Both the position numbers and the translations under genes were made by a program. The notes under the pieces are model-generated. The model worked only from the letters and a program-made list of their open reading frames with translations, had not been told where the DNA came from and searched no databases. A stretch of DNA of 60,000 bases from Candidatus Pacearchaeota archaeon (GTDB lineage Archaea; Nanobdellota; Nanobdellia; Pacearchaeales; GW2011-AR1), in NCBI GenBank assembly GCA_040879785.1, contig JBBDJR010000006.1, positions 130,410 through 190,409 of the forward strand, written 5' to 3'. Below are positions 3,621 to 54,206 of this stretch, in pieces (positions within the stretch are counted from its first letter, which is position 1; every line of letters begins with the position of its first letter).

Positions 3621-3836
3621 ATGAATAAATGGATTGAACTTATAATCGGAATGATTCTTCTCATAGGAGTTATTCTAGTTGGCTGGGCATCCTCGGCATA
3701 CACTTGGACTATATTCGGAAAAGACCTAAACTTTTTGCACGCCGCCTGGCTGTTCCTTAAAGGAGGAATATTCTGGCTCATCGCACTAATATCCGTTCTT
3801 CTAATAATTCTCGGAATAAACGACCTAAGAGAATAA
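3621..3836 (+). CDS. small membrane protein (2 TM)
   Basis: 71-aa ORF with two hydrophobic helices and no family call. Confidence 0.5.
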   Translation: MNKWIELIIGMILLIGVILVGWASSAYTWTIFGKDLNFLHAAWLFLKGGIFWLIALISVLLIILGINDLRE

Positions 3837-3837
3837 T

Positions 3838-4587
3838 CTATCTTGAAAAGAAAATAAGACTACCTTCTATAATCGCTGCAACAATCAGTAGCGGAAGGAC
3901 AATAAATGCAAAAACTCTCAGAGAATTGATAATTGAAGTTACCATATCTTCTGAGAATTTCTTATTGTTTCTATCAATTATGAATGATATGATTAAGAAT
4001 AAAATAGGTAACAGGATTAAGAGGATGATTAAGAGCCAAAGAGGGACTTCTCTCTGATGATATCTTATAAATTCGTAAAGAAACAAAATTGAATGGTATC
4101 CTAAAAGTAGACCAAGCCCTAAAGAAATAAACAATGCGGGCAACTCAAAAATTCCGTGAGGCACAAGATTCAGGAGTGTAGAAAATCCTGCTGCTCCAAC
4201 AGACAAAGAAGAAACATATCCTACAATATAACCATTAAGAATTGTAGACGCCAGAGGATAGACTCCTAATGCTATTCCTAGAATCATTCCAAAAAAACTG
4301 GCCTGAAGATTATTAAAGAAAATAAAATTAATTAACTCCCCCTGAGACATTCCTTCTGTCTTTAAAAATAATTCCTGGACAAACTCTAATATTTTTTGCT
4401 CAATGTCTGCCGGCGGCGGAACAAAAAACCCGACTGCCACAAACAATAGAAAAATCCCTATCGCTACATAAACAAAGTTCTTTGATTCCTTAACAAAACT
4501 CCAGCTCTGAGAATAATTCTTTTTTAGAAAATTATTATTAGTCCTTCCCTTCCCTAGCATCCCTTTCTTCCTCTTTTTATTTACCAT
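3838..4587 (-). CDS. SpoIIM-like (stage II sporulation protein M family) integral membrane protein
   Basis: Multi-TM protein with NNLQASFFGMILG, NGYIVGY and PHGIFELPALFIS signatures typical of the SpoIIM/DUF95 family. Confidence 0.65.
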   Translation of the reverse strand: MVNKKRKKGMLGKGRTNNNFLKKNYSQSWSFVKESKNFVYVAIGIFLLFVAVGFFVPPPADIEQKILEFVQELFLKTEGMSQGELINFIFFNNLQASFFGMILGIALGVYPLASTILNGYIVGYVSSLSVGAAGFSTLLNLVPHGIFELPALFISLGLGLLLGYHSILFLYEFIRYHQREVPLWLLIILLILLPILFLIISFIIDRNNKKFSEDMVTSIINSLRVFAFIVLPLLIVAAIIEGSLIFFSR

Positions 4588-18172: not shown

Positions 18173-18245
18173 GGCTCCATAGCTCAGTTGGAAGAGCGCG
18201 TCTCTCATGAGGACGAGGTCCCGGGTTCGGTTCCCGGTGGAGCCA
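18173..18245 (+). tRNA. tRNA with CAU anticodon (elongator Met or Ile2)
   Basis: GGCTCCA/TGGAGCC acceptor, GCTC/GAGC D stem, CGTCT/GGACG anticodon stem, loop CTCATGA, CCGGG/CCCGG T stem. The T loop TTCGGTT has G instead of the usual A at position 58. It does not look like an initiator. Confidence 0.85.
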
Positions 18246-19083
18246 TTAATCTCTCAAACCTCAAATTGATGGGTTCTCTAATAGGTTTATGATTTGAGGA
18301 TGGAACTCCTTTAATAGATTGATTGTACTCCCGATCATAATTCATAAAGTCAAGAAACTTTTTATGGTGTTTCAGATTTACAAAACCTATTTCTTTCTCG
18401 AAAAGTAGTAGATTTTTCTTCCCATTAAACTGAAATCGGTATTGATCCTGAACAACATTCCACCTAGGATCTGGCCTTGACTTACAGAAATAGTGATTAC
18501 CACTCATCCCTAAACTCTGGAGATAATCATGAATCTCCTTGATTAACTGTTTGTGAATTGTTCTTGATTCAATTCTTGGGTAATATTTATTTGGATTTTT
18601 CGTTAGGACAAAACTCCCGTCAGTTGCAAAAAATCCTTGAACAACATGTTTTAATAAATTTTTCTCATAGAACAGTTTAGGTATTTTTAGATTAGCTCCT
18701 TTCTTTCCCACAGGGAAACCAGAAGAAGAAATCAAATCAAAAAGCTCGGCATCTATGAAATTAAATTCTATTGCATTACAATCTTTCCTAAACTTCAAGT
18801 TTGTATTTTTCTCTCTAAAGTAGACTAAAAGAGGGGAAACAATTTCTTGGAAGAAGGATATATCATCTATAGAAGATCCTGTTATTGCAATAAACTTCTT
18901 TTTACCATTAACCAAACTCAAGCAACCATCCCCCATTATTATTCCGCATAAAAGTGCAAATTTTTCTTCATCATTCATAGATTCTAAAGATAGGACCATT
19001 TTATTTTTTCCTAAGATATGTTTTAATAAATCCTTCAAGGACTTCCCATATATTTTTCCTTTCTTTTTTAACTTTAGAAACAA
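18205..19083 (-). CDS. LAGLIDADG homing endonuclease-like protein (double-motif, monomeric type)
   Basis: Two LAGLIDADG motifs are present: LLCGIIMGDGCL and VVQGFFATDGSF. The last ~13 codons (MAPPGTEPGTSSS) are antisense read-through of tRNA-CAU, so the real C-terminus is uncertain. Confidence 0.8.
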   Translation of the reverse strand: MFLKLKKKGKIYGKSLKDLLKHILGKNKMVLSLESMNDEEKFALLCGIIMGDGCLSLVNGKKKFIAITGSSIDDISFFQEIVSPLLVYFREKNTNLKFRKDCNAIEFNFIDAELFDLISSSGFPVGKKGANLKIPKLFYEKNLLKHVVQGFFATDGSFVLTKNPNKYYPRIESRTIHKQLIKEIHDYLQSLGMSGNHYFCKSRPDPRWNVVQDQYRFQFNGKKNLLLFEKEIGFVNLKHHKKFLDFMNYDREYNQSIKGVPSSNHKPIREPINLRFERLMAPPGTEPGTSSS

Positions 19084-19217
19084 AATCTATCCATAAATCT
19101 CTGTTTCCTCTAAAAGTAATTATTTCTTTCTCTTTCATAAATAATGTAATACAGTAATACTTATAAACCTTTCTTTTCTCTAGTACGAGGTCCCAGGTTC
19201 AAATCCTGGTGCAGCCA
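18246..19217. mobile_element. putative homing-endonuclease cassette lodged between tRNA-CAU and a decayed copy of its 3' half
   Basis: An intact tRNA, a ~940-nt insert carrying only the LAGLIDADG ORF, and then a 35-nt degenerate duplicate of tRNA positions ~39-73. Confidence 0.4.
19183..19217 (+). pseudogene. degenerate duplicate of the tRNA-CAU 3' half
   Basis: Compare GTACGAGGTCCCAGGTTCAAATCCTGGTGCAGCCA with the genuine GGACGAGGTCCCGGGTTCGGTTCCCGGTGGAGCCA. It would mispair in the acceptor (C5.C68) and the anticodon stem. No 5' half was found nearby. Confidence 0.7.
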
Positions 19218-25026: not shown

Positions 25027-25041
25027 TTCCCGAATCCTTCA

Positions 25042-25182
25042 TGCGGGCGAAAGGATTCGAACCTTTGTAAGCACTAAGCTAACAGGTTTCTTCGAGGTCC
25101 GTTTGCGTTATTATTATGCTGATAATCTCTTGCAAATCTACTCGCCTAAGCCTGTCCCGTTTGACCACTCCGGCACGCCCGC
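25042..25182 (-). tRNA. tRNA-Leu (UAG) with ~57-nt intron at the canonical 37/38 position
   Basis: GCGGGCG/CGCCCGC acceptor, ACAGG/CCTGT anticodon stem, loop CTTAGG|intron|A, long variable arm (TAGCTTAGTGCTTAC), AAAGG-TTCGAAT-CCTTT T arm and discriminator A. Confidence 0.8.
25088..25144 (-). other. tRNA-Leu intron
   Basis: This sequence lies between anticodon-loop G37 and A38. The internal helix CGAG/CTCG flanks the junctions. The exact splice sites were not determined. Confidence 0.6.
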
Positions 25183-25247
25183 ATAGAAATAAAGAATTAT
25201 TTTAGTATAAAAAGATATTGATATGGGATAGGATTTAAGGATGGAAA

Positions 25248-51258: not shown

Positions 51259-51672
51259 ATGAAAATCAAAACAAAACAAAAATATATAATTCTTTTAATT
51301 CTAACCATAATCTCATTAATTAGTTCCCTGGTCCTTTCATTCCCCCAAGAGCCCTCTGGGACTTGCATAATTGGAGGAGGATGCGATGTCGTCCACACCT
51401 CAAAGTACAACTACACCTTCGGTATACAAAACAGCTATTTAGGAATTGTTATTTTTTTAGCCCTCTCTCTACTCATATACCTTCAAATGAAAAAACCAAC
51501 AAAAGACAAAAGAGATATAATACATCTCACAATAATTGTCGGCTCCGTAATAGCACTATACTTCCTTTACATCCAGCACTTTGTTCTAAATTCATACTGT
51601 GAATATTGTATTGTTACGGACGTAAGTCTCCTAATTTCTCTGGGAATAATAATCTGGAAATGGGAAGAATGA
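51259..51672 (+). CDS. vitamin K epoxide reductase (VKOR) family disulfide oxidoreductase
   Basis: Four TM helices, a loop Cys pair (GTCIIGGGCDVVHTS) and the active-site CEYC in the last helix. Confidence 0.75.
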   Translation: MKIKTKQKYIILLILTIISLISSLVLSFPQEPSGTCIIGGGCDVVHTSKYNYTFGIQNSYLGIVIFLALSLLIYLQMKKPTKDKRDIIHLTIIVGSVIALYFLYIQHFVLNSYCEYCIVTDVSLLISLGIIIWKWEE

Positions 51673-52289
51673 CAAAACAAAAAATAATCCAACAAGGAGC
51701 CGAGGCACAAATTATTCTGGATGGAAAAAACATCATAAAAAAGCGAGTGAAAAAATCTTACAGACACTCTGAACTTGACGAAAAAATTCGGAAGCTAAGA
51801 ACCCGCTCGGAAACAAAACTTCTTGAAAAAGCATCTCAAATAACAAACATCCCGAGGGTAATCAAATCAGATGAAAAAAATAAAGAAATATCAATGAATT
51901 TTATTGAGGGGAAAAAACTCTCAGAATACCTGGATTCTTTTTCTTTGAAAAAACAAAAAGAAATTTGTAACGCGATTGGGCAAAACATTGGGAAACTTCA
52001 TAGAGAAAACATAATCCACGGAGACCTAACAACAAGCAATATGATTCTTGATGACAAAGAGGTATTTTTCATCGACTTCGGACTCGGATACATCTCAAGA
52101 AAAATCGAAGACAAAGCCGTCGACATCCACCTTCTAAAACAAGCTCTCGAAGCAAAACATTACAAAAACTGGGAAACTCTTTTTGAAGAAGTCATTAAAG
52201 GATATGAAAAAAACCAGGGAAAAGAAGAAACAAAAAAAGTCTTGGAAAGAATTCTGGCTGTTGAGAAAAGGGGCAGGTATCGGCATTAA
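51669..52289 (+). CDS. bud32: Bud32/Kae1-associated atypical protein kinase (KEOPS subunit)
   Basis: IQQGAEAQIIL, SYRHSELDEKIRKLRTRSETKLLEKA, IIHGDLTTSNMIL, FIDFGLG. The preferred start is the ATG at 51669, which overlaps the VKOR stop (ATGA). Confidence 0.85.
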   Translation: MTKQKIIQQGAEAQIILDGKNIIKKRVKKSYRHSELDEKIRKLRTRSETKLLEKASQITNIPRVIKSDEKNKEISMNFIEGKKLSEYLDSFSLKKQKEICNAIGQNIGKLHRENIIHGDLTTSNMILDDKEVFFIDFGLGYISRKIEDKAVDIHLLKQALEAKHYKNWETLFEEVIKGYEKNQGKEETKKVLERILAVEKRGRYRH

Positions 52290-52316
52290 GAAATAATTAT
52301 AACTATTGAGTCAAAA

Positions 52317-52389
52317 TAGCCCCACCAGGATTCGAACCTGGGTCACGACCTCCAAAGGGTCGTATCTTTGACCGCTAGACTATGGGGCT
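52317..52389 (-). tRNA. tRNA-Gln (UUG)
   Basis: AGCCCCA/TGGGGCT acceptor (A1-U72 as in archaeal tRNA-Gln), GTCT/AGAT D stem, CGACC-CTTTGGA-GGTCG anticodon arm, CCAGG-TTCGAAT-CCTGG T arm. Confidence 0.88.
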
Positions 52390-53337
52390 TCAAAAGTTCC
52401 ACTTATTAACTTTATTTAAATGTCTCGAATTATGAAATCCAATTTGTTTTAAAAACTTTCTTAGTTCAGATTTCTTAGTTATATACACTTTATTTCCTTT
52501 AGTGATTTTTGAAGGCACAATTCCTAAAATCTCCAAAGATTCCTTCACATCTCTCAACAAAGTTAGATTAAAATTAGTGAAAACTATTTGATATGTATTC
52601 TGATTGTTAAGTTTATAGATCCCTCCATCTGTATCATATAATCCTCTTAAACAGGCTGCCAAAAAGCGATGGTTTTCTTTAATCCATTTAGGGATACCTA
52701 GCCGATTCTTTATCTTATTACCTGGTTTGAATCCCTTCTCCTCCAAAAAATTTACTAGCCTAACTCCATACGCAACTAAAAACATAGCATTACGAGAATT
52801 TTTGAAGTTTTCTTTTGGATTGAACTTTCCTGAATTAACTTTTATATTAAATAATTTTTCAATTAGGGATTTCACATAATTAATGAGGTAATCCTCATCA
52901 TGCCTCGAATCCCCAACAACCCTAATAACGTAAGTTCCTCGTTTATTCATTCTTGACTCATAGAATTGCGTCTTGTGTGAATTACCGTCCCCCAACATTA
53001 TTCCAAAAAATTCTGCCAGTTTCACAGAGTCTTTAGGAATTTTTATTGTTTTAGTATTCCCTTTTGAATTTTTTCCTCCCTTAGATTGCCCCCAATTATC
53101 TCCAATTTTTTCAGAGATAAATTTATCAAAATCTCTATTTACCATCTTGCAAATTTTTCTATAAAGAACCTCATCCAATAATCTTACTTCATTTCTTAAT
53201 TCGTTTCTTAAGTAACCCTCTGAAACCCCTAATAATTTAGATAATTGTGACCAGGAATAATCTTTTTTTAAGAGACTTATCATTTCTCTCTGCTTTCCTT
53301 TAACAAATTTCAATCTCATCCTAAAATTAAGAAGCAA
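52390..53337 (-). CDS. LAGLIDADG homing endonuclease-like protein with N-terminal HTH
   Basis: Two LAGLIDADG motifs: LAEFFGIMLGDGNS and CLRGLYDTDGGIY. The N-terminus has SWSQLSKLLGVSEGYLRNEL. The stop codon (52390-52392) abuts nucleotide 1 of tRNA-Gln. Confidence 0.8.
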   Translation of the reverse strand: MLLNFRMRLKFVKGKQREMISLLKKDYSWSQLSKLLGVSEGYLRNELRNEVRLLDEVLYRKICKMVNRDFDKFISEKIGDNWGQSKGGKNSKGNTKTIKIPKDSVKLAEFFGIMLGDGNSHKTQFYESRMNKRGTYVIRVVGDSRHDEDYLINYVKSLIEKLFNIKVNSGKFNPKENFKNSRNAMFLVAYGVRLVNFLEEKGFKPGNKIKNRLGIPKWIKENHRFLAACLRGLYDTDGGIYKLNNQNTYQIVFTNFNLTLLRDVKESLEILGIVPSKITKGNKVYITKKSELRKFLKQIGFHNSRHLNKVNKWNF

Positions 53338-53347
53338 AAGTATATAA

Positions 53348-53401
53348 GTCTATTGCTTGACCACTAAACTACATATACTATTGTTAAATCCTGGCGGGGC
53401 T
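53348..53401. pseudogene. decayed tRNA-Gln fragments upstream of the LAGLIDADG gene
   Basis: 53348-53372 (GTCTATTGCTTGACCACTAAACTAC) resembles the antisense of the tRNA-Gln D-arm region (52359-52383) in the same orientation as the gene. 53383-53401 (GTTAAATCCTGGCGGGGCT) resembles the sense 3' end, but in inverted orientation. Confidence 0.55.
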
Positions 53402-54206
53402 ATTCCTTAAAAGCCCTCTTATAAAAAAGCTCTCGATTAATTTCCTGTCTCTTCGGAGTCAACTTCCTAAAGAACTCCGTCAATCTTCTTTGTTTATACT
53501 TCTCTCCAATAAGAACCCCCGCAAGCTTTTTGTATTCAACACTTCCTTTAGAATTCGGTTTATGGATTGTATATGGCTTCATTTTTGAGAGGGCATTTAG
53601 AACTTCCGTATCATGAGGTATGACTGCAAGAACAGGAATCCCTAAAGTCTCCTCGACATCCTCAAAAGAAACCTCAAAATTTTTATTATGAACTTTATTC
53701 AGAACCAATCCTGATATCGGCGCTCCTCTCTGCTTAGCCAGCTTTATTGCCTTTATCGTCGCGCTAAGAGTTGAATGGTCGGGCGTCGTAACAACAATAA
53801 TCTCATCAGATGCAAGCATGACTGCAAGAGTTTCTTCGTCGAGGGAAGGAGAAGAATCTATCAAAATTACATCATAACTTCTTTTCAAACCCTTAATCCT
53901 ATCTCTCAGTTTAAGAGGATTTATCTTTGATTTCCAAAAGATTGAGGCAGGCATCACGTGCAAGCCATCCAAATCATGTATAGCGTCTTTAGTTCCCGCA
54001 GACCTGTCCAAAACATGATGAAGAGTTTTTTCAGGGTCCACTACATTTAGATGAAGCCCCAAACTTGGAGACGAAAGATTTCCATCAATTAAGAGAGTTT
54101 TCTTTCCAAGACTCGAGAACGCCGCTCCCAGAGAAGAAACAACACTCGTTTTCCCCACACCTCCTTTTAAACTAACAATACCAATGGTTTTTCCCATTAT
54201 AACCAA
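53400..54206 (-). CDS. MinD/ParA-family P-loop ATPase
   Basis: Deviant Walker A IVSLKGGVGKTSVV, Walker B VILIDSSPS; 268 aa. Confidence 0.85.
   Translation of the reverse strand: MVIMGKTIGIVSLKGGVGKTSVVSSLGAAFSSLGKKTLLIDGNLSSPSLGLHLNVVDPEKTLHHVLDRSAGTKDAIHDLDGLHVMPASIFWKSKINPLKLRDRIKGLKRSYDVILIDSSPSLDEETLAVMLASDEIIVVTTPDHSTLSATIKAIKLAKQRGAPISGLVLNKVHNKNFEVSFEDVEETLGIPVLAVIPHDTEVLNALSKMKPYTIHKPNSKGSVEYKKLAGVLIGEKYKQRRLTEFFRKLTPKRQEINRELFYKRAFKE

Follow-up and report, generated by a model that had tools for sequence, protein, structure and literature searches.

How does a LAGLIDADG endonuclease gene come to lie directly against an intact tRNA gene, with pieces of the same tRNA on its other side? 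This question is raised by a stretch of 60,000 nucleotides (nt) of Candidatus Pacearchaeota DNA (GenBank assembly GCA_040879785.1, contig JBBDJR010000006.1, positions 130,410 to 190,409), hereafter the window, in which such a gene ends at the first nucleotide of a tRNA-Gln(UUG) gene. Our comparison with related loci makes it fairly probable that the unit is a free-standing LAGLIDADG homing cassette, active or recently active, inside a single tRNA-Gln(UUG) gene between the genes for Bud32 and MinD. The cassette brings a TATA box, the open reading frame (ORF) and a replacement tRNA 5′ end, and in this way rebuilds a complete tRNA-Gln 3′ of the ORF. The parts of the locus, with lengths of products in amino acids (aa), are the following.

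52317-52389, minus strand: intact tRNA-Gln(UUG), the endonuclease-linked copy (ARAGORN; Rfam tRNA, 65.3 bits)
52390-53319, minus strand: LAGLIDADG endonuclease gene, 309 aa from the ATG at 53319, with TGA at 52390-52392
53341-53348, minus strand: putative TATA box of the cassette, CTTATATA, about 22 nt 5′ of the ATG, a conserved block in 26 aligned loci
53357-53371, minus strand: stub, the displaced original 5′ end of tRNA-Gln, of which only nt 8-22 are left (similarity and family-wide conservation)
53383-53402, plus strand: probable relic of a former tRNA-Gln on the plus strand, covering its 3′ end from the T-loop to nt 73 (score reached by 0 of 5000 shuffles)
53400-54206, minus strand: MinD/ParA-type ATPase gene, one flank of the insertion locus (Pfam, synteny)
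51606-52289, plus strand: Bud32/RIO-type kinase gene, the other flank (Pfam), used as anchor for finding empty alleles

The Endonuclease and Its Tie to tRNA-Gln

The ORF contains two LAGLIDADG motifs, LAEFFGIMLGDGN and LAACLRGLYDTDGG (Pfam LAGLIDADG_3, 1.4e-13), and the residues G110-D111-G112 and D229-T230-D231-G232, at the ends of the two motif helices, were invariant in 19 sequences. In the AlphaFold model (predicted local distance difference test, pLDDT, 86.5), residues 1-72 form an extra helical domain resembling a helix-turn-helix, followed by a disordered linker and by a double-motif core (residues ~95-309). AlphaFold and Foldseek together gave this protein the pseudo-symmetric alpha-beta-beta-alpha-beta-beta-alpha fold. 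The best Foldseek matches of the core were I-DmoI (2vs7; E 1.3e-9, target template modelling score 0.69-0.72) and I-Tsp061I, with WhiA and bI3 maturase further down the list; these matches came from fold comparison alone, a sequence-profile search of the PDB having found no solved relative. The product is an I-DmoI-like monomeric double-LAGLIDADG protein, a predicted nuclease, with an additional N-terminal helical domain. The mechanically called ORF (52390-53337) starts at a TTG at 53337 and gives 315 aa, against 309 aa from the ATG at 53319. An Rfam search across 52200-53500 detected no group I intron and no other known RNA around the ORF.

The DNA of the window is low in GC and comes from a DPANN archaeon. 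The protein belongs to a family of more than 300 members, which are 50-71% identical over their full length, N-terminal helical domain included, and are labelled Pacearchaeota, Woesearchaeota or Nanoarchaeota. Relatives were found to be encoded at 43 genome loci. Downstream sequence was readable at 41 family loci (35 genome loci, L092, L128-L131 and the window), and in all 41 a tRNA-Gln starts between -12 and +15 nt from the end of the ORF. In the window itself, the TGA (52392-52390) abuts nt 1 of tRNA-Gln (52389) with a spacer of zero, as an earlier note on this DNA, made from its letters alone, had stated. At the C-terminus of many homologues stands SPVV or SPIV; these residues are what AGCCCCGTAGTCTAG, the 5′ end of the tRNA, encodes when translated. 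A third of the linked tRNA-Gln genes were overlooked by ARAGORN because an intron follows directly after GGTCAA.

Several members of the family deserve separate mention. The closest homologue (71% identical; L128:1151-2161) has no stop codon before or within the tRNA, so that its ORF of 336 aa spans the whole tRNA-Gln; the gene order at L128 is identical to that of the window. Decayed copies were seen at three loci: at L030:4169-5998 an insert of ~1.1 kb, encoding a 278-aa zinc-finger, transposase-like ORF on the opposite strand, splits the gene in its 3′ end; at L036:4001-4444 about 150 N-terminal residues are missing; and at L043:4001-4881 the gene is fragmented. Distant relatives (32-40% identical; L033, L039, L041, also L034 and L037), one of them from an Aenigmatarchaeota bin, lie directly upstream of tRNA-Glu, tRNA-Asp or tRNA-Gln(CUG), and the tRNAs at L033, L039 and L041 have D-loop introns. 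The tRNA-linked lifestyle thus seems to be broader than tRNA-Gln.

A Displaced tRNA 5′ End and a TATA Box

Upstream of the gene, the fragment TAGTTTAGTGGTCAA (53357-53371, minus strand) is identical to nt 8-22 of the tRNA at 13 of 15 positions. The earlier note had recognized it by eye as a D-arm piece. Taken alone it is modestly significant, its score being reached by 19 of 5000 shuffles and by 15 of 3558 background windows. What decisively confirms it is that the piece recurs at the same distance from the start codon in ~30 related loci, which carry (AGCCCYN)TAGTNNAGYGGTCAA at -60 to -35 from the start codon. Directly after this stub follows CAATAGATTTATATA, a TATA box located 22-30 nt before the ATG, and in the 26 aligned loci stub and TATA box stand at a fixed distance, the TATA block having invariant columns. 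Throughout the family, the fragment is what the tRNA gene originally had as its 5′ end (nt 1-21/22), now displaced. The conserved TATA box would drive the endonuclease ORF, giving the cassette an expression signal of its own, and its position implies a leaderless or short-leader endonuclease mRNA.

In many loci a second TATA box lies ~30 nt 5′ of nt 1 of the stub, as it does in uninterrupted tRNA-Gln genes, which it resembles in position and sequence type. Both the acceptor part of the stub and its native promoter have decayed in the window, as they have in some relatives. Simple excision in the window would not restore a working gene, since the stub lacks the acceptor strand and the promoter. 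Where stubs are better preserved, they are 0-1 mismatch away from endonuclease-free alleles in 11 of 14 loci, and 1-6 mismatches away from their own linked tRNA. The occurrence of such fresh stubs along with badly decayed ones suggests insertions of different ages.

Empty Alleles and the Insertion Point

The earlier note had called for endonuclease-free tRNA-Gln alleles to be looked for in relatives, and had counted a lack of empty sites among the findings that would speak against its view. Among 80 metagenome loci (L044-L123) fetched with a Bud32 profile, the endonuclease was found in only one, and 44 had an uninterrupted tRNA-Gln between Bud32 and MinD, S15 or RecJ. Such empty alleles therefore do exist, 44 of them, at the same Bud32-MinD locus, and together with the two junctions described below they constitute a presence/absence polymorphism at one homologous site. 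On the Bud32 tree, occupied loci are dispersed between empty ones. The further suggestion that the host cannot lose the cassette does not hold as a general rule, since most alleles are empty and some copies of the endonuclease have decayed.

The endonuclease-bearing L008 and the empty L102 share the end of MinD, the promoter and tRNA nt 1-22; after nt 22, L102 continues as tRNA and L008 as cassette. Similarly, the stub and promoter of L130 match L065/L069 through nt 22, and the linked tRNA of L130 is that of L065 from about nt 24 to its end, differing only in the D-arm and in the presence of a 37-nt intron. These two junctions show that the cassette was inserted after nt 21/22 of tRNA-Gln, at the boundary between D-loop and D-stem, and that it supplied a new 5′ end.

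The flanking genes of the window have mixed affinities. At 51259-51672 (plus strand) and its flanks, VKOR, MinD and RecJ are closest to the endonuclease-free L065/L069; for Bud32, the neighbour of the cassette, the nearest relative is L008 (71%), which bears the endonuclease. The affinity of Bud32 may be a trace of co-transfer of flanking DNA; the difference sits in the middle of the protein and is not decisive.

The tRNA-Gln gene between Bud32 and MinD can point either way in relatives, in empty as well as occupied loci. Direct duplications of the tRNA-Gln 3′ end were also observed, of 22 nt, ~85 nt apart, at L065:3663-3850, and of 12 nt, ~30 nt apart, at L053 near 3740-3870. Along with the two orientations, these duplications look like scars of repeated rearrangement or integration at tRNA-Gln. 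ORFs in gaps of ~1 kb near some empty alleles were considered as hidden endonucleases; by eye they look like unrelated genes, no family search having been run on them.

D-Arm Types, Introns and Putative Immunity

Intact tRNA-Gln genes were classified by their D-arm, the C13 type being GTAC/GTTC-AGYGGTCAA-GTAT/GAAT. The D-arm of the window, GTCT-AGCGGTCAA-AGAT, is of the T13 type and has no intron. The 44 empty alleles comprise 27 genes of C13 type without D-loop intron, 16 of T13 type without intron, and a single one with a D-loop intron. For the 38 endonuclease-linked genes the corresponding numbers are 1 (L128), 22 and 15. The intronless C13 type is thus much rarer among linked genes (1/38 vs 27/44; Fisher p = 4e-9) and the D-loop intron more frequent (15/38 vs 1/44; Fisher p = 3e-5), shared ancestry among loci being ignored in both tests.

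The intron starts after GGTCAA (nt 21/22) and so coincides with the cassette junction within ~1 nt. An intron at the insertion point, as collaborative homing would have it, was found in 15 of the 38 family loci, the window with its intronless tRNA not being one of them. The intron folds into a bulge-helix-bulge-like structure, and 18 of 36 predicted pairs show compensatory changes (alignment of the whole pre-tRNA). We read the bias in D-arms and introns of linked tRNAs as putative immunity to self-cleavage. The linked tRNA-Gln genes at L012:4889-5050 and L013:1149-1307 have two introns each: besides the D-loop intron there is a larger intron at the canonical position 37/38.

It is conceivable, if somewhat doubtful, that D-loop introns in DPANN tRNA genes are in general partners or products of tRNA-targeting LAGLIDADG cassettes, which they would protect against and travel with. 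If true, the way in which protein-spliced archaeal tRNA introns are gained and spread would for the first time have a concrete mechanism at the DNA level, and the hypothesis that disrupted tRNA genes protect against invaders would have a direct example.

Proposed Mechanism

We propose that the endonuclease cuts endonuclease-free tRNA-Gln alleles in the D-arm region. The break would then be repaired from a cassette-bearing genome; the stub would serve as one homology arm and the remainder of the tRNA as the other, and the cassette would be copied in (intronless homing). The linked tRNA would escape cutting through a changed D-stem (T13 for C13, with compensating changes), or through a bulge-helix-bulge-like intron at the insertion point, a route that would correspond, in archaea, to collaborative homing. 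Transcription of the tRNA probably starts at the cassette promoter and runs through the ORF, and 5′ processing then frees the tRNA.

With respect to this last step, empty alleles possess a strong TATA box, CCTTATAAAT, at -32 to -28, and linked tRNAs have coding sequence in its place. Since linked tRNAs are without this strong box, it is plausible that they are co-transcribed from the cassette promoter and then processed at the 5′ end. The window and two related loci were matched by no RNA run, and contigs of three DNA sediment runs gave coverage in uninformative fragments. Where ORF and tRNA overlap, 5′ processing would remove the stop codon.

The view of the earlier note that the cassette carries an intact tRNA as cargo stands in part: an intact tRNA does adjoin the ORF, but only the displaced segment need be carried, namely nt 1-21/22 in the case of tRNA-Gln and roughly the 3′ half in the case of tRNA-Met, to which we return below. 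The idea of a lineage of LAGLIDADG genes tied to tRNA genes proved correct, with the amendment that there are in fact two families.

Several observations weigh against the homing cassette as just described. Inside the ORF, ~31-36 nt before the tRNA, there is a weak motif of TATA type, CATCTTAAGAAAG (in the window, TTTAAATA), which could be an independent tRNA promoter. The linked tRNA of L128 is of the C13 type and intronless, one exception to the immunity pattern; 16 empty alleles are already of the T13 type, which is therefore not diagnostic of linkage; and the significance of the D-arm and intron classes was calculated without regard to common descent of the loci. Also, no near-identical endonuclease genes were seen in divergent hosts. 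Lastly, the endonuclease diverges about as fast as its housekeeping neighbours (mean identity 57% vs 51-61%). Correlations between endonuclease and host distances (rho 0.28, -0.02 and 0.46, with 0.47 for a host-versus-host control) are uninformative at these divergences.

Alternative Explanations

This similar pace of divergence and the lack of visible recent transfers are what one would expect of a domesticated LAGLIDADG protein, that is, of an ancient fixed insertion with a role in the host, inherited vertically and lost many times. The role could be that of a WhiA-like DNA-binding regulator or of a factor in tRNA-Gln expression or processing. Conservation over the full length of more than 300 proteins, N-terminal helical domain included, would fit such a role, as would the single copy per locus, the conserved synteny and the presence of WhiA and bI3 maturase among the structural matches. 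Domestication nevertheless appears unlikely to us. At Bud32-anchored loci the gene is the rare state (1/80) and the uninterrupted tRNA-Gln the common one (44/80); truncated copies and a copy disrupted by an insertion sequence (IS) exist; both catalytic acidic residues are invariant; and a single ancient event is hard to square with the many stubs that are still identical to living empty alleles.

The near-coincidence of the cassette insertion point with the 5′ splice site of the D-loop intron (within ~1 nt) invites another explanation, in which the ORF once resided inside a bulge-helix-bulge intron at D-loop position 21/22 and a copy of exon 1 was inserted later before the 3′ part of the intron. 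The stub might then still serve as an alternative 5′ exon, with the ORF released as circular intron RNA. D-loop introns are indeed almost confined to linked tRNAs, including those of the distant relatives at tRNA-Glu and tRNA-Asp, and the closest structural relatives of the protein are archaeal intron-encoded enzymes. We consider this origin quite improbable all the same, as the classical layout without a copy of exon 1 was found in no locus, the ORF lying between stub and complete tRNA throughout. The conserved TATA box is located 3′ of the stub, so that the main mRNA would exclude the stub, and the acceptor strands of the stubs do not co-vary with the 3′ strand of the linked tRNA and are decayed in many loci, the window included. 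Moreover, 22 linked tRNAs have no intron.

The Inverted 3′-End Fragment

The second piece reported upstream of the ORF, an inverted copy of the tRNA 3′ end, is also real. The fragment GTTAAATCCTGGCGGGGCTA (plus strand, 53383-53402) shows 15/16 identity without gaps and ~18/21 with one gap, and its score was reached by 0 of 5000 shuffles and 1 of 3558 background windows. Its last three bases (53400-53402) are the MinD stop codon TAG. It was absent from all other family loci in either orientation, the closest relative L128 included. Three empty alleles (L069, L063 and L073) have a tRNA-Gln on the plus strand whose 3′ end falls at or inside the stop codon of MinD; the sequence there is ...TGA-TAGCCCCGCCAGGATTCGAAC in L069 and ...TAG-CCCCGCCAGGATTTAAC in the window. 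The fragment is best read as the scar of a former plus-strand tRNA-Gln that abutted MinD, and as specific to the window.

One claim made about the upstream pieces has to be given up: the inverted repeat does not bracket a mobile unit, the fragment being confined to the window. The two pieces also differ in origin, one being a conserved displaced stub and the other a relic of this window only. We also considered whether the relic could be an older stub (AGCCCCG, a degraded D-loop and AACAATAG..TATAT), but this fit is poorer: by eye it aligns over ~24 of 36 columns with three gaps, against ~18 of 21 for the 3′ end.

A transposon-like or integrase-type element bounded by inverted tRNA 3′-end repeats, or a segment flipping between them, is so improbable as to be largely refuted: an imperfect inverted repeat of ~20 nt does bracket the ORF-tRNA unit of the window, and relatives have the unit, or a tRNA-Gln free of the endonuclease, in either orientation between Bud32 and MinD, but the inverted copy is missing from the other loci, even from L128, the LAGLIDADG gene is the only ORF in the unit (ORF list, Pfam), neither transposase or integrase nor conserved terminal inverted repeats of IS or transposon type were found, and the duplication that the family shares consists of the 5′ end in direct copy instead of paired terminal repeats.

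A Second Family at tRNA-Met

The other LAGLIDADG gene of the window had been noted as a parallel case at a tRNA(CAU), and this was borne out: an antisense ORF runs over the 3′ end of a tRNA-Met(CAU), with a partial copy of the tRNA upstream of the ORF. The features are the following.

18173-18245, plus strand: intact tRNA-Met(CAU) linked to the second endonuclease gene (ARAGORN, Rfam)
18205-18999, minus strand: second LAGLIDADG gene, 264 aa from the ATG at 18999, antisense to the tRNA-Met 3′ end and overlapping it
19001-19138, minus strand: ORF of 45 aa, MKEKEIITFRGNRDLWIDFVSKVKKERKNIWEVLEGFIKTYLRKK, with its stop 1 nt before the endonuclease ATG; conserved in L125-L127
19158-19169: TATA box, GGTTTATAAGTA, 5′ of the 45-aa ORF
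19182-19217, plus strand: stub, the probable displaced 3′ part (nt 38-73) of tRNA-Met, 29/36 identical, score 37, reached by 0 of 1000 shuffles

The start of this endonuclease is probably the ATG at 18999 and not the mechanically called TTG at 19083. The family counts more than 260 proteins, and the window's two endonucleases share 25% identity (E 4e-8). In 5 of 5 loci the ORF converges on the opposite-strand tRNA-Met and overlaps its 3′ end, within a conserved HIT-...-S17e synteny. The 3′ stub is significant in the window and in L124 only and was undetectable in L125-L127. The arrangement appears to mirror that at tRNA-Gln: the cassette would carry a 3′ part of the tRNA and displace the original 3′ part. 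The product of the 45-aa ORF may be a small DNA-binding partner or regulator of the endonuclease. A further similarity, with a score of 27, at ~36.9 kb matched no RNA family and was treated as chance.

Elsewhere in the window, a tRNA-Leu(UAA) at 25041-25183 (minus strand) has a 57-nt intron at the canonical position (Rfam 45.9 bits and the intron mode of ARAGORN); it was overlooked by ARAGORN with default settings.

Comparison with Known Systems

Homing endonucleases are well known from phage, organelle, rRNA-intron and intein settings, and the mechanism proposed here is ordinary homing by a free-standing endonuclease. Among the enzymes already named, I-DmoI and I-Tsp061I (rRNA bulge-helix-bulge introns) are likewise archaeal, monomeric, double-motif proteins linked to stable-RNA genes. 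Their ORFs lie inside the intron, whereas the ORF of the window lies upstream of a complete tRNA, with a putative promoter of its own and a protein extended by an N-terminal domain of ~90 aa. A parallel in layout is reportedly offered by the Allomyces atp6 gene, attributed to Paquin and colleagues in 1994, in which an organellar endonuclease gene is said to be inserted, carrying a replacement copy of the displaced end. As there, insertion occurs in a gene, a duplicated segment keeps the gene intact and the displaced remnant stays. The Allomyces case concerns in-frame fusions to mitochondrial protein genes; ours concerns tRNA genes of free-living or episymbiotic archaea, and two families that duplicate opposite ends.

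Free-standing endonucleases of T-even phages, such as SegB in the T4 tRNA cluster (PMC2330249; review PMC2988022), are also situated beside their presumed target, tRNA genes. As with SegB, the gene is optional among relatives, and co-conversion of flanking sequence is expected. SegB is a GIY-YIG enzyme located between phage tRNA genes, while here the gene of a predicted LAGLIDADG nuclease lies inside a cellular archaeal tRNA gene that is rebuilt by a duplicated segment. Collaborative homing has been described for F-CphI and the psbA intron (PMC6083498). The similarity is that a free-standing endonuclease adjoins a target gene whose intron occupies the presumed cut site; such an intron would shield the allele of the host and might move together with the endonuclease. 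In our case, however, the intron is of the protein-spliced, bulge-helix-bulge type, is found in a tRNA gene (15/38 linked tRNAs, the window's not included), and would be protective judging by its distribution alone. The D-loop introns also bear on a proposal of Randau and Soll (2008, as cited in PMC4090602) that tRNA introns guard tRNA genes against invaders.

Partial tRNA copies beside an intact tRNA are also a feature of tRNA-integrating integrase elements (PMC9897764). The present unit differs from these in that it has neither a recombinase gene such as an integrase nor direct tRNA 3′ repeats at both ends, in that the duplicated part of tRNA-Gln is the 5′ end and not the usual 3′ end, and in that the cargo is a single endonuclease gene. 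Archaeal group I introns with LAGLIDADG genes have been reported in rRNA genes only (PMC6125680, the one paper found to name both Pacearchaeota and LAGLIDADG), and our full-text literature searches returned no account of any endonuclease family devoted to cellular tRNA genes of archaea.

For a selfish gene inside an essential gene of 73 nt without an intron, a spare copy of the displaced end would be a simple route. This would account for one class of the tRNA "debris" found in DPANN genomes, a class that is also a source of confusion in tRNA annotation. The position of a non-canonical tRNA intron becomes tied to an endonuclease insertion site, so that intron gain and protection can be put to the test, and the compact enzymes might provide new site-specific nucleases with tRNA-gene targets. 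What is new in comparison with the systems above is the existence of dedicated, putatively homing LAGLIDADG families inside cellular archaeal tRNA genes, the duplicated end by which the tRNA is kept intact, and the coincidence of the insertion site with that of a non-canonical intron.

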